Below are positions 41,958-64,000 of a stretch of DNA of 64,000 nt, one piece after another. The stretch comes from an uncultured bacterium (GTDB lineage Bacteria > Omnitrophota > Omnitrophia > Omnitrophales > Aquincolibacteriaceae): contig CAYJSI010000003.1 of the NCBI GenBank assembly GCA_964373045.1, positions 9,030 to 73,029 on the forward strand, in the 5' to 3' direction. Position 1 is the stretch's first letter, and every line of letters begins with the position of its first letter. Under the pieces are notes generated by a model. It was not told the DNA's origin. It worked only from the letters and a program-made list of their open reading frames with translations, and searched no databases. The translations under genes were made by a program, and so were the position numbers.

Positions 41958-42344
41958 TGGGATCTTCTTGGATGATCGCTCTGCATAATGTCGGCGGGCC
42001 TGCCTGCCGCAGGCAGGGAGGAAAGTCCGAGCTTCACAGGCAGCGTAGTGGGTAACACCCATCTCCGCCATGCAACCGACGGCGGACGGATTAGAGCCAC
42101 AGAGACGAGTCCAAGGCGAGCTAACTTCTCGCCCTTGGGGTGAAACGCGGCAATCTCTACGTGAAGAAAGGCTAAATAGGGTGAAGGGCCCTTCGGGGCG
42201 AGAGCGCCTGCTCTCTTTTCGTGCAAACGATTCCTTCATCGGGTCAGCCGCAAGCGGCATCGGGTAACCGATGTCCCAGATAGATGATCATCACCCCGCT
42301 CTTAAAAGGCGGGGGACAGAACTCGGCTTATAGAGAAGATCCCC
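41958..42344 (+). ncRNA. rnpB: RNase P RNA, bacterial type A
   Basis: P1 pairing GGGATCTTCT (41958-41967) with AGAAGATCCC (42334-42343). P4 strands GGGAGGAAAGTCCGAGCTTCACAGG and ACAGAACTCGGCTTAT. GTGGGTAACACCCATCTCC and GGGTGAAGGG conserved blocks. Length ~387 nt. Confidence 0.85.
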
Positions 42345-42473
42345 TTCAAAGACATTTTTCATTTGACAGAATCCCGCCTGTCGGATACACTTCTCACACT
42401 TTTGTACAGTTCATCCTTTTAAGTCGGTGCTGCGACATCGACAAGGGAGTCTTGATGAAACTAAAAAATCTAA

Positions 42474-49400: not shown

Positions 49401-49757
49401 GGATATCCTCTCGTGGCCACCAAGGGAACGGGCGAGGTGCTTCAAAGGCATGGCGTTCCTGCCGAAATCGTTTTAAAGATTGTGGAGGGACGTCCGAACG
49501 TCGCAGATCTTATCCGCAACCGCGAGATCGGTCTCATCATCAATACTCCGAGCGGAAAAGGGCCGGTCTTAGATGAAGTCAAGATCCGTTCGCTCGCCGT
49601 TTCCTTCAATATCTCCTGCATTACAACAATCAGCGCCGCAAAGGCCGCTACCGTGGGGCTTGAGGCTGTCCGGGGCAAGGGCCTCGGCGTCAAAGCCATT
49701 CAGGATTATCATCCATGTACGACCCAACCGTCACGATCGACGATAACCGCAAAGTAA
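46440..49757 (+). CDS. carB: Carbamoyl-phosphate synthase large subunit
   Basis: Duplicated ATP-grasp halves ([25 protein letters not shown]... and [25 protein letters not shown]...). MGS-like C-terminal domain. 1105 aa. Confidence 0.95.
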
Positions 49758-50485
49758 ACGGAAAATACTTCAAACTCATTTTCCGCTCGAAGCCTCTTTC
49801 CCGCAAGGTCGAGCCCGGCCAGTTCATGAATGTTCAGTTGAAAGACTCACTCGATCCTTTTTTAAGGCGGCCCTTCAGTTATTACCGTGTTCTGAGGAGT
49901 CAAATCGAAATTCTTTATGAAGTTCTGGGCCACGGCACAAGTATTCTCGCGGGTTTAAAAAAAGGAGACCCCTTAAAAGTTTTAGGACCTTTGGGAAAGC
50001 CTTTTGCCAAAAAAATTCCTAAAGGAAAAAAAAGGGTGCTTGTGGCCGGGGGGGTGGGGGTCCCGCCGCTTGTTTTTTTAGCTGAACGTATTCCGGCCGA
50101 TTACCTTCTGATCGGCACGAAATCCAAACAGGAAGTCCTTCCCAAAAAGGAGCTCTCAAAGGCCAAAGCCGAGATTCTTTACTCCACCAACGATGGCTCT
50201 TACGGAACCAAAGGTTTTGTCACGGCTTTGCTCGAAAAGATCATTAAAGAAAACGGCGCCGGGAATCTTTTCATTCAAACCTGCGGGCCGGATATCATGA
50301 TGCAGGCCGTGATCAAGATTGCGCGCCGTGAGGGGATTGACGGCGAGGCCTCGCTCGATGAAACCATGGCCTGCGGTGTCGGCGCTTGCCTGGGGTGCAT
50401 GGTGAAGACCCAAGATCGCGGCTGGGTGCCCTCCTGCACCGAAGGACCTGTGTTTTCGTTTGGTGAGTTAGACAATAGTCCATAG
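49715..50485 (+). CDS. pyrK: Dihydroorotate dehydrogenase electron-transfer subunit
   Basis: FAD-binding RRPFSY. 2Fe-2S cysteines [11 protein letters not shown]...C at the C-terminus. 43-nt overlap with carB. Its last codons and TAG stop (50483-50485) lie inside a heptamer-repeat array. Confidence 0.85.
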
Positions 50486-50499
50486 ACCATAGTCGATAG
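50477..50499 (+). repeat. Left heptamer array (GTCCATAG-ACCATAG-TCGATAG) bounding the inserted four-helix-bundle element
   Basis: agtccatagaccatagtcgatag. Same heptamer family as the right array 50870-50898 and as the two 117-nt repeats in the giant 3' ORF. Confidence 0.7.
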
Positions 50500-50513
50500 A
50501 AAAGGGCGAAAGC

Positions 50514-50865
50514 ATGGCTTTCAAATTTGAAAATTTAGAAGTTTGGAAAAAGGCTTTAGAGTTGAGCTTTCAAGTGCATCAACTGACTAGGACATTTCCA
50601 AAAGAAGAATTGTATGTATTGAGTTCACAAATCCAACGAGCAGCAGATTCTGCAGTATTGAATATCGCAGAAGGAAGTACAACGCAAAGCAATTCTGAGT
50701 TTAAGCAGTTTCTGAGGTATGCATTGCGTTCCACGGTTGAAGTGGTTGCCTGCCTTTATCTGGGGAAAAAGAAGAAACCTTATCGAACAAGTAGATTTTG
50801 ATCGTCTTTATGTTCAGGCAGAAGAAGTTGCCAAGATGATTCAAGGGTTGCGTAAATCTCTTTAG
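50514..50865 (+). pseudogene. Four-helix-bundle protein gene (TIGR02436 / 23S-rRNA-intervening-sequence-protein family) with a +1 frameshift in an A-run
   Basis: Frame 0 gives MAFKFENLEVWKKALELSFQVHQLTRTFPKEELYVLSSQIQRAADSAVLNIAEGSTTQSNSEFKQFLRYALRSTVEVVACLYLGKKKKPYRTSRF*. After ggggaaaaagaagaaa (~50763-50778) the +1 frame continues NLIEQVDFDRLYVQAEEVAKMIQGLRKSL*, which is the expected family C-terminus. Extra A in the homopolymer, or a sequencing error. Confidence 0.75.
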
Positions 50866-50869
50866 TTTG

Positions 50870-50898
50870 CTATGGACTATGGTCTATCGACTATGGAC
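50870..50898 (+). repeat. Right heptamer array (CTATGGA-CTATGGT-CTATCGA-CTATGGAC), inverted relative to the left array
   Basis: ctatggactatggtctatcgactatggac, immediately before the pyrD ATG (50904). Confidence 0.7.
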
Positions 50899-50903
50899 TC
50901 AAC

Positions 50904-51848
50904 ATGAAAACGGATCTCACGACCACGATCAAGAACCTGACATTTCGAAATCCGATGACGGTGGCCTCGGGGACCTTTGGAACAAAAGGTGAGTTCGAAA
51001 AAGTGGTGAATTATGGGAAATTAGGCGCCATCATCACAAAAACGATTACCGTCAAGCCGCGCGCTGGAAACCCCATGCCCCGTATTTGTGAAACCGCGGG
51101 CGGGATGCTCAATGCCATCGGCCTGCAAAATAAAGGCCTCGATGATTTTATCGAAAACAAAATCCCTTACTTTGCTAAAATCGATACGCCTTTGATCGTG
51201 AACATTGCCGGAGAAACGCTCAAAGATTTTAGAACGCTCACAAAAGCTCTCGATCGAGAAAAGCCGGTCGTAAAAGCGCTTGAGCTGAATCTCTCCTGCC
51301 CGAATGTGGAAAGCGGCGGTGTGAATTCCATGAAAAAGCGGGAGCGCATTCTGGATGTGATCAACACGGTTAAATCCGAAACGGATTTAACCGTGTTTGC
51401 CAAGCTTTCGCCGGAACTTGGAGACGTGGTTGAAATCGCAGGGGATGTCATCAAAGCCGGAGCCGACGGCCTTAGTTTGATCAATACCCTGAAAGGAATT
51501 GCCATTGATGTTCATAAGCGAGTTCCCCGGATTTCGAATATCACAGGAGGATTGAGCGGCCCTGCCATCAAACCCGTGGCGCTTCGTTACGTTTACGAAG
51601 TGAAAAAACATCACAAAGTGCCGGTGATTGCTTCCGGCGGGATCATGAATGCTCAGGATGCAGTCGAATTTCTCATTGCAGGAGCCGATCTCCTTGCGAT
51701 CGGGACTGCCAATTTCGTCAATCCACGCGCAACCCTCGATATTCTGGAGGGGATTCAGGATTATTGCAAAGAAAAGAAGATTTGCGTGATCGACGAGCTT
51801 CGCGGCACACTCAACGTGTCGCACGGTTTCCATGAAGGAGTGATTTAA
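50904..51848 (+). CDS. pyrD: Dihydroorotate dehydrogenase catalytic subunit (class 1B)
   Basis: FRNPMTVASGTFG, NLSCPN, GGI..AQDAVEFLIAGA motifs. Confidence 0.9.
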   Translation: MKTDLTTTIKNLTFRNPMTVASGTFGTKGEFEKVVNYGKLGAIITKTITVKPRAGNPMPRICETAGGMLNAIGLQNKGLDDFIENKIPYFAKIDTPLIVNIAGETLKDFRTLTKALDREKPVVKALELNLSCPNVESGGVNSMKKRERILDVINTVKSETDLTVFAKLSPELGDVVEIAGDVIKAGADGLSLINTLKGIAIDVHKRVPRISNITGGLSGPAIKPVALRYVYEVKKHHKVPVIASGGIMNAQDAVEFLIAGADLLAIGTANFVNPRATLDILEGIQDYCKEKKICVIDELRGTLNVSHGFHEGVI

Positions 51849-52609
51849 TGACAAAGGTGCCAGAATCTCATTCTCAGAACCCGTCACCTGTCACCCGTGA
51901 CCCGAAACCTCAGTCTAAACTAATCGTTGCACTCGATACGGCAAGTCTTGAAGTTGCGAAAGAACTCATCGAGAAATTGAAGGGCGTCGTTTCTTTTTAT
52001 AAAATTGGTTTTGAACTTTTTACCGCACACGGCTGGAAGGCCGTGGAACTTGTGAAGCGCTCGGGCGCCCGCGTTTTTCTCGACCTCAAATTCCATGATA
52101 TTCCGAATACCGTGGCCAAAACGGCGTCTGTGATTGCCGCTCACGAGATTGACATGTTCAATGTGCATGCCCTCGGAGGCTTTGAGATGATGGAAGCGGC
52201 ACGCAAAGCGGTGGACGATGCCGTGAAGGGGAAAAAGAAAAAGCCCATTCTTTTAGCGGTAACGGTTCTTACAAGTCACAGCGAGGAAGATCTTGAAGCG
52301 ATGGGCATTGAAGGCAATCTCAAGGACGAAGTGCTGACCCTCGCCTGGCTTGCTAAAAAAGCCGGAATGGACGGCGTCGTCAGCTCTCCCCAGGAGATCA
52401 CGCTCCTACGCAATGAATTCCCGAAAGACTTCACGATTGTGACGCCTGGGATTCGCCCTGCTTACACCGCAAAAGGGGATCAAAAACGCACCTTCGGACC
52501 CAAAGAGGCCTTTGTCGCCGGGGCCGATTTTATTGTCGTGGGCCGCCCCATTACAGCCGCTCCGGACCCCCGCAGCGAGGCCATAGCGATCCAAAGCACA
52601 CTGAAGTAG
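51848..52609 (+). CDS. pyrF: Orotidine-5'-phosphate decarboxylase
   Basis: LIVALD...FYKIGFELF...VFLDLKFHDIPNTV motifs. Overlaps the pyrD stop. Confidence 0.9.
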   Translation: MTKVPESHSQNPSPVTRDPKPQSKLIVALDTASLEVAKELIEKLKGVVSFYKIGFELFTAHGWKAVELVKRSGARVFLDLKFHDIPNTVAKTASVIAAHEIDMFNVHALGGFEMMEAARKAVDDAVKGKKKKPILLAVTVLTSHSEEDLEAMGIEGNLKDEVLTLAWLAKKAGMDGVVSSPQEITLLRNEFPKDFTIVTPGIRPAYTAKGDQKRTFGPKEAFVAGADFIVVGRPITAAPDPRSEAIAIQSTLK

Positions 52610-52626
52610 GCCCGCGGGGAAGACAA

Positions 52627-52663
52627 CGGGGCCAGGTGGGGGCCAGGCCCCCCCCTGGCCCCG
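52627..52663 (+). terminator. GC-rich hairpin downstream of pyrF (possible terminator or processing site; no U-tract)
   Basis: cggggccagg-[tgggggccaggcccccc]-cctggccccg. 10-bp perfect stem with a structured loop. Confidence 0.35.
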
Positions 52664-52780
52664 ATGGCCTCGAGAGGTTTAATTTTGCTAGTTTGAATTA
52701 GTGATTACTCCAAAAAGGAATCGCTTGATCCAAATTACCCGTTCCCCTTTTTTATTCCTCGTTTTTTTAGGCCCGTTTCC

Positions 52781-52809
52781 TTGAAAAAGTGCAGATTGAA
52801 TGCTACACT
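52781..52809 (+). promoter_or_regulatory. Candidate sigma70 promoter TTGAAA-17-TACACT upstream of the giant 3' ORF
   Basis: TTGAAA 52781-52786, 17-nt spacer, TACACT 52804-52809. ~100 nt upstream of ATG 52908. Confidence 0.35.
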
Positions 52810-52907
52810 TTTTTCGATTTTACCATTCCACTAAAATTTCATTTCGTTAAAGGAAGCGCCGAACAAGGGGGATTGTGTTAGCCTATCTTAAGCCGATTAA
52901 AAAAGAG

Positions 52908-55900
52908 ATGAAAAAACAAATAAAATCCCTCACGGCCTCCCTCACCGTCCTCTGTTTTCTCGTCACTCAAATCGCCTCGGGCGCACCCTTCCTCTTCGCC
53001 TCACCCTATCGTGCCGAAATGGCTGCACAAAGGGAATTGATTCCTTTTCCCACCTTTGGGCTCAGCGTCCCTTCCGATCTGGGCGTGATCGATTATCTTC
53101 ATCGGGGTTCCGGCCCGGTTCTTCTGCATATTCAAACCGCCCACGGCCACTACGACGCTCAGAAAAAAATCGAAGCCCTACTTTACTATCTCAAGAAGGC
53201 CTACGGCATTCAGGATCTTTTCATCGAAGGGACGGCGGTCAAAATCCAGCCGGAACTTCTGCGTTTTTTCCCTGATGACAAGGAGCTCAATCGTGAAGTT
53301 CTTGACGGGCTCACGCGCCGGGCCTTTGTGAAGGGCTCTGAACTTTTTGCCGTGGACGAACCCGAAGCAAATCTCTATGGCATTGAGGAGCTCAAGTCCT
53401 ATCGCGTCAACAAATCCTCCTTTCGAGAGGTGCTCCGCGAGCAGGAGAAAACTGAGCGCTGGGTCAAAGAAATGGAAATGCAGATGGAGCGGCTCACCGG
53501 GCCTTATTTGAATAAGGAACTTCGAGCTTTTCTTAAGCGGATTGAGGACCACGAGGCCAATCGAATCGGCATGATGGACTGGCTCTCGATTCTAAAAGAA
53601 GAGGCCGAGAAACGCCTTGAGATCCGTCTGGCCGACCCCGCCTTTCAGCTTGACTGGCCTATGTTGGTGCGGGTCTTTAAACTCCGCGAACTCGATTCAA
53701 AATTGGATCCTCAGATTTACCCGAAAGAACGGGCCGAATTCCTTCGCTCGATCCGCCGTTTTCTCCCGGGCGCCCTCGCCCTTGAAATTCAAAAGGAGCT
53801 CATGCTCCCCCCCTCCGCTCAATCCCTTTCAGACCCTGGGACGAGTGAGCTCTTCCTTAAAATGGTGGAGCACCTTCCGCCGGGATTCCGTTATGACGCC
53901 TTTCCTCAGGTGAAATATTTCATCGGTCATTTAATTTTACAAAGTGAGCTCAAGGCCGAACGGCTTGTGAAGGAAGTGGAACAGGTTCAAGAGAAGATCC
54001 AAGCCAAGCTCGCCAAAACCCGTGAAGAAAAAGAACTCCTAGTACTTCTTCATGAGAAAAAACTTCTCACACGGCTTCTTCACCTTGAATTGACGCCGGG
54101 GGATTATGAAAAAATACGGGTCCCAGGTGCCGGGTCTCAGGTGCCAGGCTCTGTTCTTTCTGACACCCGACACCCGACACCCGTTACCCGTCACCTTCGT
54201 CCATCTTCCGTCGTTTCCCGTTTCCTTGCCGTGAACCGCGATCAGCGCGTTCGCAACGTCTCCTTCCGCCACTTAGAAGAAATCGACCGGCTTTACGAAA
54301 AGGCGCTTGAGTTTTACCGAGGCGCCAAAGAGCGTGATCAGTTCATGATAGACAATATCCTTCGGCTTATTCGGGATGAAAAGATTTCAAAAGCGGTTGT
54401 GATCACCGGAGGTTTCCACACCAAACCCTTCCAGGATTTTTTCACGAAAGAAAATTACCACTACGCCTCCATTTCTCCCAAGATTACCGAGATCGAACCC
54501 CGCGATGCCTATCTCCACGCCATTCTCCAGGATTCACCACTCACCAAGGCCTCCACACTTGAGGTGGACTCCATCGCAGTTCCAAAGGAGCAGCTTGTTC
54601 TTCACGGCACAAACTTTGAAATAGTGAATGGCATCGTGATGGGGGAACTCGAAACAGCGGCACGCAAAAAAGGAAAATGGAATGATTCAACCATTCAGGC
54701 TTTTGATCAAAGTGCTTATGCCAGGATAAACGGCGTACGGCTCAACCAAAATCTTTCTTTAGTTCCTCAAGCCCTTTCCCGGGCTGAGGTACGGAATATT
54801 GAGACAGAAGCAATTGAAGATGTTCAAGATTTTTATCAACTTCATTTTTTGGCTATGTTTTACGGCCATGAGTTTATACACCCTCAAGGGGATTCTCCGA
54901 GTCCGGCGAGTCTTGAAGATCAGGTTGACGCGTATAACTTTTGGATTACGCATTTTGAGCAGCGTAATTTATTCAACGGCACTCTTGCCGAAACCACTGC
55001 GGGGAGCAGAATAAGCGAAGAGCAATTTAATGCCCTCAAGGAATTTCTCCTGCGGACTTATCCTCGTCAAGGTAGTTTTCCTTCGTTGATTCACCGGTAT
55101 CTTATCGGTTTGGGTCAAAATCGTCTGGAGGAGGTGCTTGCGTTCATTGGCCAGGCAACGGTTCTGGAACAGCCCGAGGGTCGTCCCGGATTTTGGCGTG
55201 TCAATGGCGACTTAAAAAGTCAGAATAAAGCCATTGTTATTTGGGATGAAGGTACATCCATTCATTTCCGTGTGTTTTCGAGAGGGTCAGAACGCGAGAG
55301 TGATCAGGAATTTTTCTTTATTAATCCCGCTCATTTAGATGCTATTCGCAATGCGATAGAAGCAGCTTCTAGAGGAACCGTCCGAATTCCCCGCTCTGAG
55401 GTGAGGAAATTGGGCGAGGAGCAGGAGACGAGGCGGCCGATCAACCTGAGGGATGGCGGCGGTTTATATAGTACTGATAAATGGCTGCAATCCCGATCAT
55501 TACAGAGATTATGGTCATTGCTCCTAAGACTTCAGCCATGGTTTAACGCCCTCCTTTGGGGGGATAAAGAACCCACGCGACAACAAATCCGAGCGGTGGT
55601 TAATGCGAGCGCCGGCGGGAAAGATAATCCAGTAAGAGAATCCCGCCCATTATGGCCATCACAAAAAGAGCTGCACCATACAGCATCCAAATGGGGTGCA
55701 TCTCATCCTCCTTTTTTTGAATTCTTACGGTTAGCATTCAAACGAATAAATAAAAATAATCAGCCCACCCAGCATACAGCAACCGCCGAAAAAAATACTA
55801 GCATTAAATCCATCTCCTCTCAACAAGGGAATTACCAGCCCCGCCAAAATGACGGTATAAGTACTGACGCAAATTTTGACCAAATTTTCTCGGCGCTTGG

Positions 55901-58900
55901 CCGTCAATCTCAGCATCTCTTTTCCCTCATTAAAACCTTAAGTAAGCGTATTCTGAATTTTGTTATAAGTCAATTATTATTTTTAGTTAAATCAAATTTT
56001 AATTTACTGTCTTCGGGAGTGTGGGGGATGAGGACCCCCTTCCTTACCCCCGGCCTCTTACTCCCGGCCCCTGTTTCTTCTCGCTTGGATGCGCGGCGAA
56101 GTGAAGTGCGAACGGAAATTTTGGGGGTTCGGGCTTTAAGTTCGTTGGACCGTAGTGATATTGAGGCAGGACGTAAGGGCGGCGAGATCTTTTTTCTCAG
56201 CCAGCTTCCTCGTCAACAGAGGCCGACGGATCAACAACTCATCAATCAAATCATCTGGGGGTGGCCCGCCTTCCGGGAAAACATTCTTCCTGAAATTCAT
56301 GAGAGGTTTTTAGAGCTCAATCGGTTATTGTGGTCTAACAGAAGTGTCCTTGCAAAGGATCCCGAGTTCCGAGCGTTTCTTGGATATTTTGCGGAGCGCC
56401 TGGCAAGAAGGAATTTTCTCCAAACCCCCCTTGAAGAAATATCCGGTCGAACCGAAAAGCAAGTTCTCAGAGCTTATCATCAATTCGTAACCATCAAAGA
56501 TCGCATCCTTTCGCGCTCAGAAATGCGAACCTCGAGGCAGCTTCAAGGAGAAATTGATTATTTTTTCAGAATGAAGGAAGAAGCCCGGTCTCGTGCGGAT
56601 TTGATGGAACGCATGCTGAGTGAAATTAAAATTATCCTCGAGGGAGGACGCGGGTTAAAACAGGCAGGGCGAACTCAAGAAGCGCTGGATGTCTTAGAAA
56701 TTCTTCGCAGCTACGCCGATAGACTTACGAAGTTTGCCGAAAAAATTGGGCCTGAGAAAAAATACTTTCCTCGTGGAGTCTCTCGGGAAGAGTTGCAAAA
56801 ATGGCGCGCTGAAGAGGAAGCGAGGGACGGGAATATTTTACCCGAAGCAAGCGCCGCCGATTTAAAAGCCCGATCCGCAGATCTCAAAAAACGAATCGAT
56901 GCCTTTCTTCCTCAATTCATAGAGGCCTACCGCCCGGATAATGAGCGGAAACTCGACCGTTTGAATCATCAGGTTCTGGCCCTTCATAAAGCCCGAATCA
57001 AAGTCCAGCTCTTGCAGGCCCGTCATTACCTTTTGAAATCCTCTCCCAACGAAGGAGTTCTCTCTAACCTTTTGAATTCGCTCAGGTCAAGCTACATGCG
57101 GCTGCAACAGGAATATTGGTGGCGCTGGAAGCGCTCAGTCCGTAGCGCTGAGATTCAACAAGTTGCCGTTGTCGGTCACGAAGGCCGTACTGTTCGAACC
57201 TATGATTATTCCCAATTTAAGCTGAGGGTGAAGACTGCAAAAGATGCAGACGAGGATTCCGAAAATGTTTTAATCCAAAATCGGTGGAAATTAATCGTGC
57301 AACCCGATGGTTCAAAAGTGCATCAACTCGTTCCGACCGAAATTCATTTTTCAAGTTTAGATACAACGCTTCGGGCTTCCTTGAATACGCTCATCAGCCA
57401 GGAAGAAGATTACGGACAGGTCTTGTTTAGAGTGACGGCACTTGAATACGTTGTTGAGATCCTCAAAGAAGCCGTCAAGAACGGGACAGAACGTATTTCG
57501 AATTTCCAACAGGAAATTATCAATGCGAATTTAAGAGATGTTTTAGAAGGAAAAGGCGGACTTCGTGCCGGGATCACACCGCAAAAGGAAAATGCAACGG
57601 CCAAAGTCGAGGAAGCGATTGTGCATATGAAGGCCGGAAAATTTTCCAAGGCTAGTGAAGTGCTTGAAGACGCGATCAAAAGACTTCGGAGCCGATTAAC
57701 CGATATCGAGGGGAAAAATAAGGGGATACGCCATATCACGGATTATGTTGCCCATGAACTTCGAAAAGAAGAAACCGGCAGGGCGATTCGGGAAGTTAAA
57801 ACATTAGTGGCCCAGAATGATTTTCCATCAGCCTCAGAACTTTTAACGCAGCTCTACCAAGCCAATTATCGACCGATCGCCTCAAGGCACGGACAATATG
57901 AGTCTCTTAAGCGCGAAGTTTTAGCGCTCAAAATCAATATTACTCAATTGCAACGCTTTCACGGAAAACCATCGGAAGTAGACTTAAGAAAATCCATTTT
58001 CGAAAACATTCGCCGCATTTCAAATATGACGGGTGTTCGTTCCGAGCTGCGGCGGCAGACCAAGCACAGAGCAAAGAGCATGCCTGCCCGCCGAAGCGAA
58101 GCTGCAGGCGGGGAGCGTAGAGTTAACCTTATGCCCTCTGCCAGCCCTCTGCCCGTTTCCCGCTCCAAGTCGCGTGAACGCTCAGAGGTAAGAGTCACTT
58201 CGCCTGATTTTGAGGCCAAAGCGAAGCGTCATGCTGCTGAGTATGCAGTCATGACTACGCACAGATCCTCGGACGATGAAAGTTTTCTCCCCGATTGGCT
58301 GAAGAAACTAGGGGATGTTTTTTTGGTTCGAGATCGAATGCCGCGAAGAGAAGATAAGCAATTAGCAGCGGAGAGGATTAACAGAGTACCGCGTCTATCA
58401 TCCTCCGGTAAGTTCCTCGATCTCCGTAAACCCGCATCGGATTATCTGGATGAGATAGCTTCCCGTCTTTTATTCGGGGATAACACGCCTCCTCAAACCC
58501 GCGAAGGATGGCAGGGCTTGATTTTGGACGTTGCCGCTCCAACGCTCGTCCGTCAAACGGCTTTTGCGGCGTTCGAAAAAGCAAATCCCGATTTATTTCC
58601 TCCGTCCGTGCGCATTGAAATATCGGTCCGGGATATCAATAAAGTTCCAGCCGACGGCATGATTGTGGAAACCGATTCTCATCTTCTCGGAACCCCGGGA
58701 ATGTTCCTTCGCTCGCTCGAGCTTTCTCCGGAAGGCGATGTTCCGAACATTTCCGACTGGCGCGATCAATCTAAGAATCATGAACCGGGATCAGTTGTGA
58801 TTTCTCCGTCTTTAGCTCAAGCGAAGGAGAAAACCATTGCCGGATGGAAATATGCGCTTGGCGCCATTGTGCGTTCCACGGATGAACAGCCTCTTGATGA

Positions 58901-61900
58901 AAAGATTTATAAAGCCGCGCTCAGAAAAGCACTGGAACAAGCCGACCGTTTAGGATTGGAAACCGTCACGCTGAATCATCCCGCAGCTTTGACTTGGGCC
59001 ACTACCGTGATCCGGCAATTTTCAAAGCAAAAGCGTCTTCATTTAAAATCTGTAAACATTGTTTTTTTTACGGAAAAAGATTACAACACCTCCCTTCAAT
59101 TCACTTCCCGTTCCGAGGCGAGAGAAAGGCAGTCGATAGTCGATAGTCGACGGTCCATAGCAAACCCAGTAGTTAATCCATGGGCTATAGACTCTCTTCT
59201 ATTGACTAACCCCCGCTCCGAGCTGCGACGGCCTGAGAAAAACGAAGGCCGCGCAGCCGTCCCGCGTTCAGAAGCGCGGGGCGAGGTGCGGAAGAAGAAT
59301 CAAATCAATTTTGATTTGGAACGTGAGAAGCGGAAAATACAAGAAACAAAAGAACAGTTCGGCTCGACTTTACCTTGGATGGATAAGCAGAATTTTATTC
59401 TGGATTTCTTGGTCCGGGATGCGCTTCCTATTTTTGGAAATGTTTTTCAAGGTGGCCGCCGCGCGGCACTAAGGAGAATTAACGAGGGAAGCAAAAATAA
59501 AGCAGACACGTCTCCCGTTACGAACTACGACCCTTTAATTGAAGGAAAATTTCGGGATGCGGTTGATGGGGCCTTCCCTGGTCACGGTGTCTTGGGGGAA
59601 GAACTTGCTGATCGGAACAGGCTTCGTCCTCAAACGTTTACGTCAGATCCGATTGATGGAACAGTGGACTGGAAAATACTAGGTTCGCACTTTGGAAACC
59701 TGAGCGGATATTACGACAGCATTCATACCAACGGTGAGCCGCAAGTTGCAGTCGGGTATTGGCCTCTTCTGGATATGGATGGTTCGGGCTCCATGCTTTT
59801 TGTCGGCCGCGAAGACCAAGATGGAATTCTTGTTAATGGAAAGAGAGTTGAGCGTGCCGCGATCGAAGCCATCAATCAAAGCCGCACGGTCATTATTGGA
59901 GGCAGAAGCAAGCCCAAGACGCGGCAGCTTTTAAAAGAATATTTTGAAAAACGAGGCATGATGGTGAAATTTACAAGCGCCGGCGGAGGAGAGTCCGCTG
60001 AGATGATGCTTCGTGGCACGGCACGGTTTTATATCCATCTCAATCCCGCGGCAGTCGATGCGCCTATCGGCACTTTTTTTGCTAAAAAACTTGGATTGAA
60101 AGCCACAGATCGCGAAGGCAATCCCGTAAAGGTTCCTTTTAACTATCTTCAAAATGGACTCTATTTTCACCCTTATATCATCGGATCAAACGAATCGCAC
60201 CAGGAAGCGCTAGAAGCCTTTGCCGCCATCGGAGAACCGGAAGAAGACGTCCAATGGACCCCCCTTGAAAGAAAAGCGGCTCCGGCTGATTTGATTGATC
60301 ATTTAACCCAGGAGTCGGCTCAAAGAGCGCGCCGGCTGCTTCCTCAGGATCCGGGAGTTTCCAAGAAAAAAGAAATTAAAAAGCGAGAGCTCAAACAACT
60401 TTTAGAAAGAACGGTAGCTCTAGTCGCCGAGACCGCCAGCTTGGACATGGAACGGCTGCTGAACAGTCTCATTGAAGGAGTCACGTTCAAAAAAGTTATT
60501 CCCCAGGTGGTTAAACGGGCGGTCAGCGCGTACTCCAAGAAAAAAGCGTTAGGGCAGTCGGTGATTGTTGCTCAGGCCGGAACTCCGGGAGCAGGGAAAT
60601 CCGTTGGTGGAAAATATTTAGCCGAAGCCATTGCTCGGGCCATTCAAAAGAAGTTTCCTAAAGAAAAAGTCATCGTTCCTGTTTTGAAAGAAGATAACAT
60701 TGCTTTGATCCAAAGAAATCTTCGCGGCAAAGGCTTGGCCGGAAAATTTAAATGGGCTGAACGTGACCTTGCTCTTGCGGATCTTGTCAGCGGCCAATCG
60801 GTACTTAAAGGCATCTTTGATGATACGAGCGGCGGAAACGTCCTTCTTTCTCTTGACCCGGAAGGCAATGTGGTCATTCATAACGGCAATCGGACCGTGA
60901 CCATTCGGCATAAAGCCGGCAGCGAGGTTTTTTCTTACGACGAAGTTTTGAGTCGTCCAAACGAACCTCCATTGAATCTAACAGAGGAGCAAAAACGCAA
61001 TCATATCAACATTCAGGATAGCGGAATTTTTGAGTGCGGTTCCACAAAAGTACGCATTCGAATCGAAGGAAAAGGTACAAGTGCACGGCTTATTGTTGGT
61101 TTTCAAAGTTTAGAAATCGTATCGCTCAATGAATACGGTGAACTGGAAATGCTGACACAGCTAACCGATCATGAGATTGAACCGGTTACCGGAGGCAGGG
61201 CAACCGTAAAGGCGCGCTCTCCTTTAGGAGATCTCCCTTCCTATTTAAATGAAGCGTCGGTTTTTCAGATCGAAACCGTTCAGAATCCTCAAAAAGTCGA
61301 GGACCTCCGTAAAGCTAAAGAAGCCAGAGAATTTGTCCCTTCCGGTACACCCCTTGTCTTTGACGGCCAGTTTGCATTTTTAAGGCTTAATGAAAAAGGT
61401 GGTTTTTCTCCGGATGTTCATCTCTATGACGTTACGCTGAATTATCGGGCGAATCGAATGACGCGCTGGGCAAGAGATCTTAAGCGAAGTCGTGAGCGCG
61501 GAAGAACAACGGCAGAAGCCAATGAAAACGCTCAACGGTTTTACGAAAGAGCTTTTACGGAAGAAGAACGCTCGAATCGGGCCAACGCGGAATTCGGGAT
61601 TCAGGTCAATACGACAGACCTTGCCGAATCTCTTGAACGTTTGATCCTCTATCATTTTGAACAGCAGTCCGCCTACAGTGAAATCTGGGCTCAGATGGGC
61701 ATTGATCCCAAAACCATTGATGAAGAGCAGCGCCGGGAAAATGATCTTCCCGAAACTTTGAAACTGTTGGCTCTCTGGAAAAATTTGAAATTCAAGCGAA
61801 CATTAAACGGAACCATCGACGAGTATGAAATCGGAGATTTTATCATCCGCGTAGAGAGGAGCGCTCCGTCACTTTCTAAAATCCATCGGGGACAAAATCA

Positions 61901-64000
61901 AAAACTTAAAGAGCGCGGTAATGAAGTGATTGCAAGTAACTCACTGATCGATGTGCGGCAAGCGGGAAAAATTTTGGGAAAACCCATTCGTTTTACGGGC
62001 ATCAAGGGTGGTCAGCTGGGATGGATTTCCGTATGGAACAGAGGCGAGCTTTTGGGAGACCGGCTCAACAAATTAGCAGCTCAGGGAGATGCTGAAAGTC
62101 TGAATGAGGGAATAAAATGGATTGATCATTTTGTTGATCAGGAAGCAGCGCTTCACAAGCGCGGAATTGTGGATGAAGATCCGGATATGATGGAACAGCG
62201 CCGGCTTTTACCGATTCGCGGAGAAGTGAGCGTGGCTGTGGCAAGTCCCGAATCCAACCTTCGGATGGGCGGGGAAGCCCTTCGGCTTTATCGCGAGAAG
62301 TATCTTCCTGCCGCGGATCAAACTAATATCTATCTGCGTCAGGAAAAGTTGGATAAAATTCCCGCAGTATTTCGTGACTATTATAAGAAACGTGTTTCGA
62401 AGAAGTTGCTTCCGCATTCTGTCTCGGATGAAACTTCTCGAAATGAAGCATGGGAAGCTTTTTTCAAGGATGTTTTTGAAACAGCGCTTCCAAATTCCCT
62501 TCGAACTGTACAAAAAGATCTGCCCGCCGTCTTACAAACCGTTTCAAAACGAAAAGATGTCATGCGGGAACACAAAATTCCGCTTCGTAATTGGGGAGTA
62601 GAACACCCCGCCATTTACCACAAGCGGATTGAACATATGCGCGGGTATGTCACTCGCTATTTCATTCGAAGCGCCAAACGACAATATTTCCCCGCCATTC
62701 AAAGCAAATCGGCGACTCCCCAGCTTTTGTGGGTTGCCTTGATGCGCCAAACTTATCCGGATAAATATGCGGATTTTTATCAAATGATCCGGGTTTTAGC
62801 AGATGAAATGTTAGACAAACCCTTTCTCTTAGACGCGACCCGCTACCCAGCTTACAAACAGAATGCGGCGGTGCGCAGCCTTATTAGCGAAAAACTTGCC
62901 GAACCTTACCGTCAGGCGGGAATTGAACCTCCGCCGATTGACGCTGCCGCATGGGCATCCTTTGATTATTTTCTGAATCAAACACGGTCTCTTGCCGCCC
63001 GCTCAGAAGTGCGGAATGCGACATGGATTCCAAGTCCCGATGGCGAAGGACCTGGCCATGTGGTATCAGGCTCAGTTCCTGAGTCGGGGGGAGTGCGCAC
63101 TCCCGGCGAAGATGCCGTTCCTGCTCCTTCGCACGAAACGCAATTATGGCCGGAAGAAAGAAAATCTAAATCCGGACCCGGACACCCTGTGTCTGTTGCA
63201 CCTCTCATTCCAAGTCCTAAAGGACCCTTGGATACCGGTGGCGGCATTGTCTCCAAAGAAGATCTCTCCTCTTCCCGGGCTGAGGTAAGAGACGAGGCGA
63301 GAGAAAGGCAGTCGATAGTCGATAGTCGACGGTCCATGGAAAACCCAGTAGTTAATCCATGGGCTATAGACTCTCTTCTATTGACTAACCCCCGCTCCGA
63401 GCTGCGACGGAATGCCCGCTCGGCAGGGATGACACGCAGAAATTTCCTGATAGGGAGTGGGGCTACGCTTGCACTCACGGGGTTTGCGGCCCCGCAGTCT
63501 GTAGTGAAGTTCGCAGCGGCCAGTTCGCCGCCCAACCAGAAAAAATCTGCAGAGACGGATCAAGAAATCGAAAAGAAATTCATCGAGTGGCGCAAGGCCG
63601 CAGAAAAAGCCTTTCTCGAAAGATTTCCCTTGGATGAAAAAATCGAGAAAAAACAAATGCTGACTGATGACGAAAAGAAACAGTATCTGGAGCTCAGAAA
63701 GAAAACCCGTGAACTCAGTCTCCTGATGATGTACGCCTCCTACCGTCTCCAGGAAAGAGAAGATAAACGGCTTGAAAATAGAATCCTGGAGGATCTGACG
63801 AATTCTCTCGATTTAAAATCAAAGAACAAGCAAAAGCGGTATTACACGGCTGCCACTCTCGAGCAACTGGGGTATTTTTATCACAGTATAAAATTGCGGG
63901 ATTTTCTCATCCGTGTCGCTCAGGATACCAAGCTGGATGCCCTCTATCGTGATAGAGCTGTCGATGGGCTCGCTCTCATGATCGCGACTTATTGGAACAC
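52908..64000 (+). CDS. Giant modular secreted protein, 5' portion (more than 3,697 codons; continues beyond the window). Segments: Sec signal; TraB/GumN/Tiki-like module; low-complexity linkers; macro-like domain; inositol-monophosphatase-fold domain; P-loop kinase-like domain; internal Tat-type signal peptide.
   Basis: Every codon in the frame (positions congruent to 0 mod 3) from 52851 to 64000 was checked by hand and none is TAA, TAG or TGA. The nearest upstream stop is TAA 52848-52850. First ATG is 52908. N-terminus MKKQIKSLTASLTVLCFLVTQIASGA. Motifs seen: LLHIQTAHG / VITGGFHTKPF (TraB-like), VRDINKVPADGMIVETDSHLLGTPG..LGLETVTLNHPAALTWA (macro-like), GVLGEELADRN + DPIDGT (IMPase fold), VIVAQAGTPGAGKS (Walker A). 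Not in the supplied track, presumably because it has no in-window stop. Confidence 0.8.
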   Translation, partial: MKKQIKSLTASLTVLCFLVTQIASGAPFLFASPYRAEMAAQRELIPFPTFGLSVPSDLGVIDYLHRGSGPVLLHIQTAHGHYDAQKKIEALLYYLKKAYGIQDLFIEGTAVKIQPELLRFFPDDKELNREVLDGLTRRAFVKGSELFAVDEPEANLYGIEELKSYRVNKSSFREVLREQEKTERWVKEMEMQMERLTGPYLNKELRAFLKRIEDHEANRIGMMDWLSILKEEAEKRLEIRLADPAFQLDWPMLVRVFKLRELDSKLDPQIYPKERAEFLRSIRRFLPGALALEIQKELMLPPSAQSLSDPGTSELFLKMVEHLPPGFRYDAFPQVKYFIGHLILQSELKAERLVKEVEQVQEKIQAKLAKTREEKELLVLLHEKKLLTRLLHLELTPGDYEKIRVPGAGSQVPGSVLSDTRHPTPVTRHLRPSSVVSRFLAVNRDQRVRNVSFRHLEEIDRLYEKALEFYRGAKERDQFMIDNILRLIRDEKISKAVVITGGFHTKPFQDFFTKENYHYASISPKITEIEPRDAYLHAILQDSPLTKASTLEVDSIAVPKEQLVLHGTNFEIVNGIVMGELETAARKKGKWNDSTIQAFDQSAYARINGVRLNQNLSLVPQALSRAEVRNIETEAIEDVQDFYQLHFLAMFYGHEFIHPQGDSPSPASLEDQVDAYNFWITHFEQRNLFNGTLAETTAGSRISEEQFNALKEFLLRTYPRQGSFPSLIHRYLIGLGQNRLEEVLAFIGQATVLEQPEGRPGFWRVNGDLKSQNKAIVIWDEGTSIHFRVFSRGSERESDQEFFFINPAHLDAIRNAIEAASRGTVRIPRSEVRKLGEEQETRRPINLRDGGGLYSTDKWLQSRSLQRLWSLLLRLQPWFNALLWGDKEPTRQQIRAVVNASAGGKDNPVRESRPLWPSQKELHHTASKWGASHPPFFEFLRLAFKRINKNNQPTQHTATAEKNTSIKSISSQQGNYQPRQNDGISTDANFDQIFSALGRQSQHLFSLIKTLSKRILNFVISQLLFLVKSNFNLLSSGVWGMRTPFLTPGLLLPAPVSSRLDARRSEVRTEILGVRALSSLDRSDIEAGRKGGEIFFLSQLPRQQRPTDQQLINQIIWGWPAFRENILPEIHERFLELNRLLWSNRSVLAKDPEFRAFLGYFAERLARRNFLQTPLEEISGRTEKQVLRAYHQFVTIKDRILSRSEMRTSRQLQGEIDYFFRMKEEARSRADLMERMLSEIKIILEGGRGLKQAGRTQEALDVLEILRSYADRLTKFAEKIGPEKKYFPRGVSREELQKWRAEEEARDGNILPEASAADLKARSADLKKRIDAFLPQFIEAYRPDNERKLDRLNHQVLALHKARIKVQLLQARHYLLKSSPNEGVLSNLLNSLRSSYMRLQQEYWWRWKRSVRSAEIQQVAVVGHEGRTVRTYDYSQFKLRVKTAKDADEDSENVLIQNRWKLIVQPDGSKVHQLVPTEIHFSSLDTTLRASLNTLISQEEDYGQVLFRVTALEYVVEILKEAVKNGTERISNFQQEIINANLRDVLEGKGGLRAGITPQKENATAKVEEAIVHMKAGKFSKASEVLEDAIKRLRSRLTDIEGKNKGIRHITDYVAHELRKEETGRAIREVKTLVAQNDFPSASELLTQLYQANYRPIASRHGQYESLKREVLALKINITQLQRFHGKPSEVDLRKSIFENIRRISNMTGVRSELRRQTKHRAKSMPARRSEAAGGERRVNLMPSASPLPVSRSKSRERSEVRVTSPDFEAKAKRHAAEYAVMTTHRSSDDESFLPDWLKKLGDVFLVRDRMPRREDKQLAAERINRVPRLSSSGKFLDLRKPASDYLDEIASRLLFGDNTPPQTREGWQGLILDVAAPTLVRQTAFAAFEKANPDLFPPSVRIEISVRDINKVPADGMIVETDSHLLGTPGMFLRSLELSPEGDVPNISDWRDQSKNHEPGSVVISPSLAQAKEKTIAGWKYALGAIVRSTDEQPLDEKIYKAALRKALEQADRLGLETVTLNHPAALTWATTVIRQFSKQKRLHLKSVNIVFFTEKDYNTSLQFTSRSEARERQSIVDSRRSIANPVVNPWAIDSLLLTNPRSELRRPEKNEGRAAVPRSEARGEVRKKNQINFDLEREKRKIQETKEQFGSTLPWMDKQNFILDFLVRDALPIFGNVFQGGRRAALRRINEGSKNKADTSPVTNYDPLIEGKFRDAVDGAFPGHGVLGEELADRNRLRPQTFTSDPIDGTVDWKILGSHFGNLSGYYDSIHTNGEPQVAVGYWPLLDMDGSGSMLFVGREDQDGILVNGKRVERAAIEAINQSRTVIIGGRSKPKTRQLLKEYFEKRGMMVKFTSAGGGESAEMMLRGTARFYIHLNPAAVDAPIGTFFAKKLGLKATDREGNPVKVPFNYLQNGLYFHPYIIGSNESHQEALEAFAAIGEPEEDVQWTPLERKAAPADLIDHLTQESAQRARRLLPQDPGVSKKKEIKKRELKQLLERTVALVAETASLDMERLLNSLIEGVTFKKVIPQVVKRAVSAYSKKKALGQSVIVAQAGTPGAGKSVGGKYLAEAIARAIQKKFPKEKVIVPVLKEDNIALIQRNLRGKGLAGKFKWAERDLALADLVSGQSVLKGIFDDTSGGNVLLSLDPEGNVVIHNGNRTVTIRHKAGSEVFSYDEVLSRPNEPPLNLTEEQKRNHINIQDSGIFECGSTKVRIRIEGKGTSARLIVGFQSLEIVSLNEYGELEMLTQLTDHEIEPVTGGRATVKARSPLGDLPSYLNEASVFQIETVQNPQKVEDLRKAKEAREFVPSGTPLVFDGQFAFLRLNEKGGFSPDVHLYDVTLNYRANRMTRWARDLKRSRERGRTTAEANENAQRFYERAFTEEERSNRANAEFGIQVNTTDLAESLERLILYHFEQQSAYSEIWAQMGIDPKTIDEEQRRENDLPETLKLLALWKNLKFKRTLNGTIDEYEIGDFIIRVERSAPSLSKIHRGQNQKLKERGNEVIASNSLIDVRQAGKILGKPIRFTGIKGGQLGWISVWNRGELLGDRLNKLAAQGDAESLNEGIKWIDHFVDQEAALHKRGIVDEDPDMMEQRRLLPIRGEVSVAVASPESNLRMGGEALRLYREKYLPAADQTNIYLRQEKLDKIPAVFRDYYKKRVSKKLLPHSVSDETSRNEAWEAFFKDVFETALPNSLRTVQKDLPAVLQTVSKRKDVMREHKIPLRNWGVEHPAIYHKRIEHMRGYVTRYFIRSAKRQYFPAIQSKSATPQLLWVALMRQTYPDKYADFYQMIRVLADEMLDKPFLLDATRYPAYKQNAAVRSLISEKLAEPYRQAGIEPPPIDAAAWASFDYFLNQTRSLAARSEVRNATWIPSPDGEGPGHVVSGSVPESGGVRTPGEDAVPAPSHETQLWPEERKSKSGPGHPVSVAPLIPSPKGPLDTGGGIVSKEDLSSSRAEVRDEARERQSIVDSRRSMENPVVNPWAIDSLLLTNPRSELRRNARSAGMTRRNFLIGSGATLALTGFAAPQSVVKFAAASSPPNQKKSAETDQEIEKKFIEWRKAAEKAFLERFPLDEKIEKKQMLTDDEKKQYLELRKKTRELSLLMMYASYRLQEREDKRLENRILEDLTNSLDLKSKNKQKRYYTAATLEQLGYFYHSIKLRDFLIRVAQDTKLDALYRDRAVDGLALMIATYWN
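59115..59231 (+). repeat. 117-nt in-frame repeat element, copy 1 (encodes EARERQSIVDSRRSIANPVVNPWAIDSLLLTNPRSELRR)
   Basis: 115/117 identical to copy 2. Contains a direct heptamer array TCGATAG-TCGATAG-TCGACGG-TCCATAG and inverted CTATAGA/CTATTGA units. Flanking sequence is unrelated between copies. Confidence 0.85.
63294..63410 (+). repeat. 117-nt in-frame repeat element, copy 2
   Basis: Same as copy 1 apart from two substitutions (ccatagc to ccatgga). Ends 20 nt before the internal Tat-like signal (ATG 63430). Confidence 0.85.

Follow-up and report, generated by a model that had tools for sequence, protein, structure and literature searches.

Two near-identical in-frame 117-nt units in a giant Omnitrophota gene contain a hairpin with the heptamer-array arms of a four-helix-bundle gene cassette

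Intervening sequences of the 23S rRNA that carry an S23p / PF05635 ORF are known in Leptospira, Coxiella and others. A different kind of insert, the Rickettsia palindromic elements (RPEs; Ogata et al. 2000, 2002), is summarised in PMC10969869 as palindromes of about 100-150 bp that lie in frame in coding genes, add tens of residues at fold-compatible positions and encode no transposase. The Correia/NEMIS elements and other prokaryotic MITEs are small non-autonomous hairpin elements that can be co-transcribed with host genes (PMC10969869). Bacterial heptanucleotide tandem repeats include the cyanobacterial STRR and the TAACTGA repeats (PMC4679880), and the STRR is mentioned as occurring within an RNase P RNA gene (Vioque 1997, as cited in PMC2858038). 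For the giant proteins of Omnitrophota ('Archaeovorins'), post-translational cleavage has been proposed (bioRxiv 10.1101/2023.11.21.568195).

The DNA considered here, referred to as the window, is a 64-kb stretch from an uncultured Omnitrophota bacterium. Its last part is occupied by a giant ORF that contains the two repeated units and the protein motifs bordering them:

52908-63998, forward strand: giant ORF, from the first Met onward (open frame of 3716+ aa from 52851), running off the window end
59109-59123, forward strand: RSEAR motif at the left edge of unit 1, which begins at the third codon of the motif
59115-59231, forward strand: unit copy 1, 117 nt, 39 codons, in frame, peptide EARERQSIVDSRRSIANPVVNPWAIDSLLLTNPRSELRR
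59214-59228, forward strand: RSELR motif inside the right end of unit 1
63276-63290, forward strand: RAEVR motif, 3 nt upstream of unit 2
63294-63410, forward strand: unit copy 2, differing from copy 1 at 63338 and 63340
63393-63407, forward strand: RSELR motif inside the right end of unit 2

The ORF has a Sec-type signal at the first Met. Its conserved N-terminal domain, about 550 aa long and with invariant Q-T-A-H-G, E-G and T-G-G-F-H motifs, is followed by macro-like, inositol-monophosphatase and P-loop kinase-like modules. The N-terminal domain had no Pfam/NCBIfam match beyond a weak one to DUF5694 (E 0.053), and a profile search of the PDB found no sequence relative of it. As homologues have only the N-terminal 15% in common and carry wholly different enzyme modules downstream, module shuffling is rampant in this giant-protein family. 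The motif R-S-E-x-R occurs 12 times in the giant ORF, never in the other two forward-strand frames, and 634 times in 100 homologues. Its codons vary widely (Ser AGT/TCN; Arg AGA/AGG/CGN), hence a motif acting at the DNA or RNA level was rejected; in the protein, R-S-E-x-R presumably marks processing or boundary sites. The macro-like match (aa 1978-2085) precedes unit 1 and the inositol monophosphatase match (aa 2197-2447) follows it; unit 2 comes after a low-complexity Pro/Gly/Ser stretch. This position in inter-domain linkers, between the domain-boundary motifs, would explain why the coding context tolerates the units.

The copies are identical at 115/117 positions, both comprise 39 codons in the frame of the same ORF, and in the alignment the identity drops to the background level directly beyond the unit edges. 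This agrees with the earlier note, which had described near-identical in-frame copies with unrelated flanks; the peptide that it had given for both was also obtained on translation. In the repeat search over the window, the match between the units reached 118 nt at 98%, the next-longest direct repeat being 40 nt at 70%. Both differences (59159/63338 and 59161/63340) are non-synonymous (I/M and A/E, respectively), and just one of the three sense frames of the unit is free of stops. No candidate with three shared 5-residue words was found for the 42-aa unit peptide among 5.8 billion proteins, and there was no Pfam/NCBIfam match over the unit peptides (aa 2089-2127 and 3482-3520). As the 39-aa peptide is without a relative in this protein set, the unit is not a domain repeat, and the earlier claim that an ancient domain duplication is not involved stands. 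The exact 24-mer spanning the loop and the right arm of the unit had 0 matches in the JGI metagenomes. Thus, two copies in 64 kb are known from searches covering these metagenomes (exact 24-mer) and the protein database, and so small a number does not suffice to define the boundaries and the mobility of this unit. An independent Logan assembly (ERR3478686) is 99.94% identical to positions 49227-59143 of the window, and its contig stops 29 nt into unit 1, which is what a genuine multi-copy repeat would give.

Within each unit there is a 76-nt core that is predicted to fold into a hairpin:

59131-59206, forward strand: hairpin core of copy 1, RNA fold -24.0 kcal/mol, z -3.55, 0/200 shuffles
63310-63385, forward strand: hairpin core of copy 2, RNA fold -32.5 kcal/mol, z -5.96, 0/200 shuffles

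In copy 1, the left arm (59131-59165) is a heptamer array with a terminal GCAAAC, and the right arm (about 59184-59206) ends in CTATTGACTAAC at 59209. The arms form an imperfect stem of about 22-25 bp with a 19-nt loop between them. Both substitutions of copy 2 relative to copy 1 are located in the apical stem, where three base pairs are gained. The RNA folding check proposed in the earlier note thus had a divided outcome: the core alone was significant, whereas the full 117-nt unit was not distinguishable from shuffles (z -1.22). Beyond the core, 16 nt on the left and 25 nt on the right are common to both copies, hence what was copied is likely a 117-nt linker block rather than a discrete hairpin transposon.

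The arms of the core have counterparts in the same window, about a four-helix-bundle (4HB) gene between pyrK and pyrD:

50470-50903, forward strand: 4HB cassette, 434 nt, from the junction comparison with the syntenic locus L001
50470-50503, forward strand: left heptamer-array arm of the cassette, from complementarity
50514-50865, forward strand: four-helix-bundle gene (TIGR02436 / PF05635, '23S rRNA IVS protein'; TIGR02436 E 2.4e-24)
50865-50899, forward strand: right heptamer-array arm of the cassette, complementary to the left arm and to 59131-59165

In L001, pyrK and pyrD overlap as GAGTTATGA with no 4HB gene between them, and both syntenic carB-pyrK-pyrD-pyrF-giant loci (L001 and L002) are without the cassette. 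Judged from this comparison of junctions, the cassette is an insertion exactly at the ancestral overlap of the pyrK stop and the pyrD start; the TAG of its left arm (50483-50485) is the present pyrK stop codon. The cassette encodes the 4HB protein alone and no transposase. According to the frame reconstructed from sequence, the gene is frameshifted in an A-rich run near 50775-50790, and two independent Logan contigs carry the same truncated ORF of 95 aa. The only RNAs that Rfam reported in the window are an RNase P RNA and one tRNA, with no rRNA. No Rfam 15 family covered the units or the cassette arms (E up to 1; gathering thresholds), and none was assigned to a further hairpin at 54116-54196 described below.

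The 76-nt core aligns to both ends of the reverse-complemented cassette. The left arm is identical to the cassette end at 30/35 positions, the non-heptamer GCAAAC included. For the right arm (CTATAGACT...CTATTGACTA) the homology is short, with a score of 23 against 22 for the best shuffle, but it exceeds every shuffle (0/300 and 0/1000). Positions 59131-59165 are 86% complementary to 50865-50899 over 35 nt, which bears out the link drawn earlier between the unit heptamers and the arrays at 50477-50499 and 50870-50898; the two arms of the cassette (50470-50503 and 50866-50899) are 85% complementary to each other.

The frequency of these heptamers, which the earlier note had also named as a check, depends on what is counted. 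In the window, the array ATAGWCSATAG is well above the background (8 found, 0 expected), whereas the single heptamer TMSATAG is not (19 found, 13.4 expected). Applied to the window, a strict family pattern of at least three (G[TA]C[CG]A[CT]N) heptamers has four matches and no more, which are both arms of the cassette and both units; 20 shuffles gave 0 arrays. Tandem TCGATAG-type arrays, on the other hand, are generic among bacteria, a scan of a genome collection with AGTCGATAGTCGATAGTCGA retrieving them from >120 species genomes of many phyla. This sequence was discarded as a family marker for being too generic: the >120 loci are plain heptamer microsatellites, none of which adjoins a 4HB gene. 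The third heptamer of the unit is TCGACGG, exactly at the position at which an unbroken TCGATAG array would have a TAG in frame.

Cassettes with the same arms recur in many unrelated metagenomic contexts. Among metagenomic loci with related 4HB proteins, the flanking inverted repeat scored above all shuffles in 48/77, and 39 of these 48 had period 7. The most frequent heptamers at the 4HB loci were GTCCAT (101), GTCGAT (62), GTCCAC (36) and GACCAT (33). The strict pattern was found on at least one flank of 37/76 related 4HB genes and on both flanks at 24/76 loci (0 in 20 shuffled windows). None of the 20 related cassettes tested for rRNA location lay in rRNA (0/20). Gene-less miniatures are present on cassette-bearing contigs (L134:1363-1393 and L144:4571-4647), and an in-frame miniature of the same family is found in another Omnitrophota giant gene (L208:1837-1914), where it is an insertion relative to homologues; its peptide is STVHSRQSTDKTLQPWTMDRGLW, compared with QSIVDSRRSIANPVVNPWAIDSLL in the present unit. 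The unit has the inverted arms of three or more RGTCSAY heptamers that define the cassette, and it has no 4HB gene. As the 19-nt loop takes the place of the gene, the unit would be a gene-less derivative and not a full member of the cassette family. The literature search with the R-S-E-x-R motif strings and for a link between the 4HB gene and heptamer repeats returned nothing relevant.

Of the mobile element that the earlier note had envisaged, the family-level part is upheld, as the cassette is absent from the junction of a relative and recurs elsewhere, and miniatures exist; transposition of the discrete unit is not. The related suggestion of a miniature inverted-repeat element fared similarly. 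The unit does contain a hairpin of the cassette-arm heptamer family and terminal inverted repeats, but the core boundaries carry no identical direct repeats that would form a target-site duplication, the only gene-bearing relative encodes no transposase, and the copies share flanks beyond the core; for want of a target duplication and a transposase it does not qualify as a MITE. A duplication of the R-S-E-x-R codons on insertion was considered and is not supported in the window (flanking codons matching at 9-11/15 positions, background 10.25). We identified no enzyme able to move the cassette or the unit, and the 4HB protein is not known to be a transposase.

The giant genes contain other in-frame hairpins, one of them in the window:

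54116-54196, forward strand: second, unrelated in-frame hairpin with inverted heptamer arrays (GGTGCC.. / GACACCC), fold z -2.89, TRF period 7

It is placed in a loop of the N-terminal domain where it is absent from about 30/40 homologues and where at least 5 have different hairpin inserts; in Rfam, 54111-54196 had only sub-threshold miRNA-like hairpin matches. A syntenic homologue has three in-frame inverted heptamer-array hairpins of quite different sequences, each between R-S-E-x-R motifs. All four of the strongest hairpins in the giant ORF of the window are within 100 nt of R-S-E-x-R (19% expected), whereas in four other giant genes the association is random or nearly so, and most R-S-E-x-R linkers are without a hairpin. 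For one L001 hairpin, the flanking 17-mers match at 16/17 positions, suggestive of target duplication there only.

On balance, we regard the units as probably being gene-less miniature derivatives of the palindromic 4HB cassette family that reside in linkers, the second copy having arisen by recent block copying. The full-length form of the family would consist of a TIGR02436 gene between two inverted arrays of RGTCSAY-type heptamers; the unit would have kept both arms and lost the gene, the hairpin being still able to fold. It would have settled in the disordered, R-S-E-x-R-bounded inter-domain linkers of a secreted multi-enzyme giant protein, where 39 additional residues would disturb no folded domain, and selection on the giant ORF would have kept or filtered the open frame of the insert. 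The second copy would then result from recent non-reciprocal copying of the whole 117-118-nt linker block, including the flanks that encode EARERQ and NPRSELRR. The presumed route of copying is gene conversion or templated recombination between linkers, not transposition of the hairpin, and the unit itself is presumably selfish or neutral.

Differing in-frame hairpins that recur in several homologues, at linkers and in one N-terminal loop, could instead reflect a selected RNA or DNA function rather than passive tolerance. The hairpins would then be structures of the giant gene itself (RNase III sites, stabilising stems or pause sites), with functional constraint keeping the copies nearly identical. 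The high significance of the core hairpins, the location of both inter-copy differences in the stem, the recurrence of dissimilar hairpins in the syntenic homologue and in the N-terminal loop, and the proximity of the strongest window hairpins to the motif are all consistent with this, as is, by analogy, the cutting of Correia elements by RNase III in Neisseria transcripts (PMC10969869). Still, we hold it to be rather unlikely: copy 1 has three stem pairs fewer than copy 2, the linkers are mostly hairpin-free with a near-random association in the other giant genes, and a cut within the ORF would part the downstream modules from any start codon. Moreover, the sequence is shared with the cassette outside the gene and with cassettes of unrelated organisms, which points to an imported element. 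A different rival concerns the 4.2 kb between the units, which could have been imported as a block by one recombination event (Campbell-type integration or unequal exchange) between a resident unit and a donor molecule with one unit, the repeats being left as scars. Direct repeats of 98% identity do bracket self-contained modules (inositol monophosphatase, P-loop kinase-like and others) in a family with rampant module shuffling, and linker sequence beyond the hairpin is included in the copied block. The unrelated outer flanks, however, are equally predicted if the unit alone was copied, neither a donor nor an allele with an empty site was found, and the 4.2-kb block shows no G+C or skew shift relative to the rest of the gene. 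A foreign origin of the block, having no compositional signal, was therefore set aside, and we deem the recombination scars quite improbable.

That the repeats are simply a protein linker or domain repeat that was duplicated and is under selection as protein, with a coincidental likeness to the cassette arms, is already largely refuted and seems very improbable. Although both copies are in frame and end in R-S-E-x-R, and homologues do contain short tandem R-S-E-x-R spacer repeats (e.g., three 20-aa repeats in P0003), the peptide has no relative in the protein set searched, both inter-copy differences change the residue, the hairpin is significant, and the DNA identity to the cassette is to a non-coding arm, on the opposite strand, with the non-repeat bases included. 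It is hardly credible that the assembly misplaced one repeat twice, as the copies differ at two positions and each lies in a continuous open frame with unique flanks; short-read assemblies do break at the unit, but an independent contig break is expected of a genuine two-copy repeat.

A wider scheme, to which we give little credence, is that the 4HB gene with its arms is a 'transcript hitch-hiker' that inserts into transcribed regions (rRNA, operon junctions, giant-gene linkers), the 4HB message being freed by RNase III. Each arm, with its four or five heptamers, might be a binding site for the pentameric 4HB protein, and the hairpin relics together with R-S-E-x-R might serve as recombination joints for giant-gene modules, with the 117-nt copies bracketing a swappable 4.2-kb block.

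The gene-less-derivative reading joins three puzzles that had been dealt with one by one, namely the ubiquitous bacterial heptamer repeats, the no less enigmatic 4HB genes of 23S rRNA intervening sequences, and the assembly and tolerance of giant Omnitrophota genes. If the association between the cassette and the arms holds in a full census, it would represent an insertable element of wide distribution that has no recognisable transposase, and would offer concrete substrates for tests (4HB protein with heptamer arrays; RNase III with the stems). R-S-E-x-R is a candidate, open to test, for the site of the proteolytic processing that has long been suspected in giant proteins, and R-S-E-x-R linkers would explain why selfish palindromes pile up at domain boundaries.

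Compared with the systems described, the host ORF resembles the 'Archaeovorins' as a giant, secreted, multi-enzyme Omnitrophota protein, although at over 3716 aa it is far below their 30,000-aa class, and that paper (bioRxiv 10.1101/2023.11.21.568195) describes no boundary motif of the R-S-E-x-R kind and no palindromes inserted in frame. The stems of Correia elements are RNase III substrates, and by analogy the same fate is plausible for the unit hairpin; unlike these elements and other MITEs, the unit was found with no target-site duplication and no transposase-bearing parent, and its known copies number two in the 64 kb and the collections searched. With the published heptanucleotide repeats the arrays share tandem 7-nt RGTC-type units, a spread over many phyla, an occasional location within genes and an enigmatic function, but the published ones are direct repeats near start codons, whereas here they form inverted arms, are tied to a gene family and are translated in frame. 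The parent cassette resembles the 23S rRNA intervening sequences in having a TIGR02436/PF05635 ORF within long pairable inverted repeats; it differs in being located between pyrK and pyrD and not in rRNA, and the unit has no ORF. Like the RPEs, the unit is an in-frame palindrome in a coding gene and has no transposase, a likeness that is functional only: to our knowledge there is no sequence relationship, and the RPEs have neither tandem heptamers nor a known gene-bearing parent. The unit is set apart from them by the heptamer-array arms shared with the 4HB cassette, by its two known copies, and by its host, a giant modular gene of Omnitrophota.

The two 117-nt repeat units inside the giant ORF (unit 1, 59115-59231; unit 2, 63294-63410) match at 115 of 117 positions, as claimed in the earlier note, and just beyond both of them the identity is at the background level. 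A repeat search in the 64-kb window scored the pair as a 118-nt direct repeat with 98% identity (runner-up direct repeat: 40 nt, 70% identity). Each unit spans precisely 39 codons in frame with one ORF, which is open from 52851 through the window end (3716+ aa) and in which a Sec-type signal comes after the first Met (52908); the unit peptide quoted in the earlier note agrees with the translation. An independent Logan contig from ERR3478686 matches window 49227-59143 with 99.94% identity and ends 29 nt inside unit 1, from which we infer that the assembler hit a true multi-copy repeat sharing the left boundary.

Of its three sense frames, the unit has only one open. A perfect TCGATAG array would be read as S-I-V-D-S-R-stop in any frame; in both units TCGACGG stands as the third heptamer, just where the array stop would fall, and thus the unit frame stays open. 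No relative of the unit peptide was found among 5.8 billion proteins, which excludes an ordinary domain repeat and agrees with the earlier suggestion that the pair does not stem from an ancient domain duplication.

The proposed heptamer link of the units to the insertion between pyrK and pyrD holds, as 59131-59165 is 86% complementary to 50865-50899 over 35 nt; the arms of this cassette, 50470-50503 and 50866-50899, pair at 85%. Single heptamers in the window are at background (19 vs. 13.4 expected), whereas arrays are above it (ATAGWCSATAG, 8 observed vs. 0 expected). Runs of at least three G[TA]C[CG]A[CT]N units occur in exactly four places of the window, namely both cassette arms and both repeat units, and in none of 20 shuffles. 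In a scan of a genome collection, the exact TCGATAG array alone was found in >120 species from many phyla, about a fifth of the arrays being inside long open frames. Four perfect CTATCGA heptamers also lie in frame within pyrK of Candidatus Omnitrophica UBA6233 (L043, 460-492; LLSTIDYRLSTI), where the Fe-S cluster motif comes shortly after them.

Features annotated in the window
39690-39761, tRNA gene
41960-42346, class A bacterial RNase P RNA (184.7 bits)
50514-50865, four-helix-bundle (4HB) gene, with a frameshift in an A-rich run near 50775-50790
54116-54196, second hairpin, unrelated to the units, with inverted GGTGCC/GACACCC heptamers (in frame, z -2.89)

The ORF 50514-50801 encodes a TIGR02436 four-helix-bundle protein ('23S rRNA intervening-sequence protein' family, E 2.4e-24). 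The same truncated 95-aa ORF recurs in two independent Logan assemblies, and hence the gene is a true pseudogene or requires frameshifting. The nearest relative of the giant protein, P0001, is encoded in a syntenic carB-pyrK-pyrD-pyrF-giant locus (L001/L002), where the 4HB gene is absent and pyrK and pyrD overlap (GAGTTATGA). Precisely at this overlap the window has 434 nt inserted (50470-50903). The pyrK stop is now a TAG of the left heptamer array, with four residues gained, and the pyrD ATG is retained; the cassette at the pyrK-pyrD junction is thus an insertion.

Cassettes consisting of a 4HB gene and heptamer arms are a general type. We retrieved 80 metagenomic loci with 4HB proteins 52-69% identical, 77 of them with usable flanks; in 48 of the 77 the upstream flank pairs with the reverse-complemented downstream flank better than all shuffles, and 39 of these 48 have a period-7 arm. 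The flank heptamers are of the window family (GTCCAT, 101 occurrences; GTCGAT, 62; GTCCAC, 36; GACCAT, 33). With a strict pattern, inverted arrays flank the gene on both sides in 24 of 76 cases, and at least one flank carries an array in 37 of 76. A Chitinophagaceae 4HB gene (L079) has 44-nt inverted arms with a related repeat. None of the 20 loci tested places a related cassette in rRNA, and our literature search found no published description of the association between 4HB genes and heptamer arms. Three of these cassettes (L129, L133, L180) have a SAM riboswitch ~1.2 kb upstream, probably one conserved neighbourhood in related Bacteroidota.

The unit core (59131-59206) aligns with the reverse-complemented cassette at both ends: 30 of 35 positions agree in the left arm, the non-repeat GCAAAC included, the score of the right arm (CTATAGACT...CTATTGACTA) is higher than that of any shuffle, though narrowly, and a 19-nt loop stands in place of the 4HB gene. 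Judged by this alignment, the 117-nt unit appears to be a gene-less miniature of the 4HB cassette. No shuffle reached the core hairpins, which fold at -24.0 kcal/mol in copy 1 (z -3.55) and at -32.5 kcal/mol in copy 2 (z -5.96). Both substitutions between the copies fall in the apical stem, where copy 2 has three extra pairs, and thus copy 1 looks slightly decayed. Gene-less hairpins share contigs with full cassettes in other organisms (L134, 1363-1393; L144, 4571-4647) and also occur among the genome matches to TCGATAG arrays (e.g. L012, L037, L092). Another Omnitrophota giant gene, that of P0045 (GCA_009691445.1), contains a hairpin that is in frame and built from this heptamer family (L208, 1837-1914; peptide STVHSRQSTDKTLQPWTMDRGLW vs. 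QSIVDSRRSIANPVVNPWAIDSLL in the window unit); comparison with 23 homologues shows it to be an insertion.

As for the origin of the second copy, beyond the hairpin the copies share 16 nt on the left and 25 nt on the right, encoding EARERQ and NPRSELRR; hence a linker block was copied, and not the palindrome alone. We favour copying from linker to linker by gene conversion or templated recombination. The 4.2-kb block between the repeats may instead have come in along with the second copy, by a Campbell-type or unequal exchange, although the composition of this block is no different. Neither a target-site duplication at the units nor a transposase was found, and the proposed likeness to MITEs fails on both target duplication and transposase parentage. 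The idea of a heptamer-array mobile element is largely right for the element family; that the two copies here have themselves moved is unproven.

The hairpins may also have a role at the RNA level, a reading kept open by their recurrence in frame in Omnitrophota giant genes, where they are common. The second hairpin of the window sits in a loop of the N-terminal domain and is absent there from about 30 of 40 homologues, and four other homologues have different inserts in the same loop; a partial copy of this hairpin (51855-51905, 75% column identity) is found in pyrF, the OMP decarboxylase gene, within its N-terminal extension. In the syntenic homologue there are three hairpins of inverted heptamer arrays with other sequences, each between R-S-E-x-R motifs. 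The association of hairpin and motif is strong in the window giant ORF, where all four of the strongest hairpins are within 100 nt of a motif (19% expected), and weak or absent in four other giant genes. Directly after unit 1, a further strong hairpin (59232-59300, z -4.66 among all 90-nt windows) covers RRPEKNEGRAAVPRSEARGEVRK, another RSEAR motif included. The strongest local RNA structure of the window is inside carB (47871-47963, z -5.67); it holds a perfect 11-bp hairpin, TAGGGACACGG cgca CCGTGTCCCTA, which reads VGTRRTVSL in frame, and may be another in-frame palindromic insert. In P0010, the odd peptide …G[VM]MNHAPT…, repeated in two different variable loops of the N-terminal domain, is another palindrome-like insert present twice in one gene.

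The motif R-[SA]-E-[VLAM]-R (also scored as R-[SA]-E-[VLAMI]-R) has 12 copies in the giant ORF (54780-63407) and no others in the plus-strand frames of the window, the other two frames included. Its codons vary from copy to copy, and hence the motif is selected at the protein level. The 100 homologues retrieved (P0001-P0100), all Omnitrophota-type giants of 2-6 kaa, have only the N-terminal 15% in common, with diverse enzyme modules beyond, and contain 634 motifs in 398 kaa vs. about ten expected by a rough estimate. The first motif regularly follows the conserved N-terminal domain, and others lie between recognisable modules. Both units have the motif on both sides; unit 1 comes after a macro-like match (aa 1978-2085) and before an inositol-monophosphatase match (aa 2197-2447), and unit 2 is preceded by a Pro/Gly/Ser-rich stretch and followed by a weakly Tat-signal-like segment. 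The motif would mark processing or boundary sites, being a candidate polyprotein processing site, and the 39-aa spacer between motifs is presumably dispensable, which would explain how the units can persist within coding sequence. Proteolytic processing of Omnitrophota giant proteins has been proposed (bioRxiv 10.1101/2023.11.21.568195), and we found no mention of the motif in the published giant-gene work.

Straight after RSELRR of unit 2, the segment MTRRNFLIGSGATLALTGFAAP (63432-63500) resembles a twin-arginine signal peptide (PF10518, E 0.097, sub-threshold); it is buried ~3500 residues deep in a protein with an N-terminal Sec signal, and would make sense if the polyprotein were cut at R-S-E-x-R. 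In the P0004 gene (L205, GCA_016179745.1) an identical 15-mer, CGCTCCGAGGCGCGG, encodes six of the 11 R-S-E-A-R motifs, which suggests homogenisation by gene conversion within the gene; unlike there, the codons are diverse in other giant genes. The N-terminal domain (53028-54770, ~550 aa) has Q-T-A-H-G, E-G and T-G-G-F-H invariant across 25 homologues, motifs that recall TIKI/TraB/ChaN-type metallo-enzymes; searches of Pfam, NCBIfam and PDB sequences gave no match except a weak one to DUF5694. The second very long ORF (2-7417, 2471+ aa, running past the window start) has no R-S-E-x-R motifs and no family matches, and hence is a different kind of large protein.

Two results have the most value, namely the association of 4HB genes with heptamer arms and the boundary motif R-S-E-x-R. 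The arms of cassette and unit belong to the bacterial heptanucleotide repeats, a class long known and unexplained (PMC4679880). The parent cassette is similar to those 23S rRNA intervening sequences that carry an S23p ORF, except that it lies outside rRNA. In behaviour the units are like the Rickettsia palindromic elements, which are in-frame palindromes within coding genes (PMC10969869).
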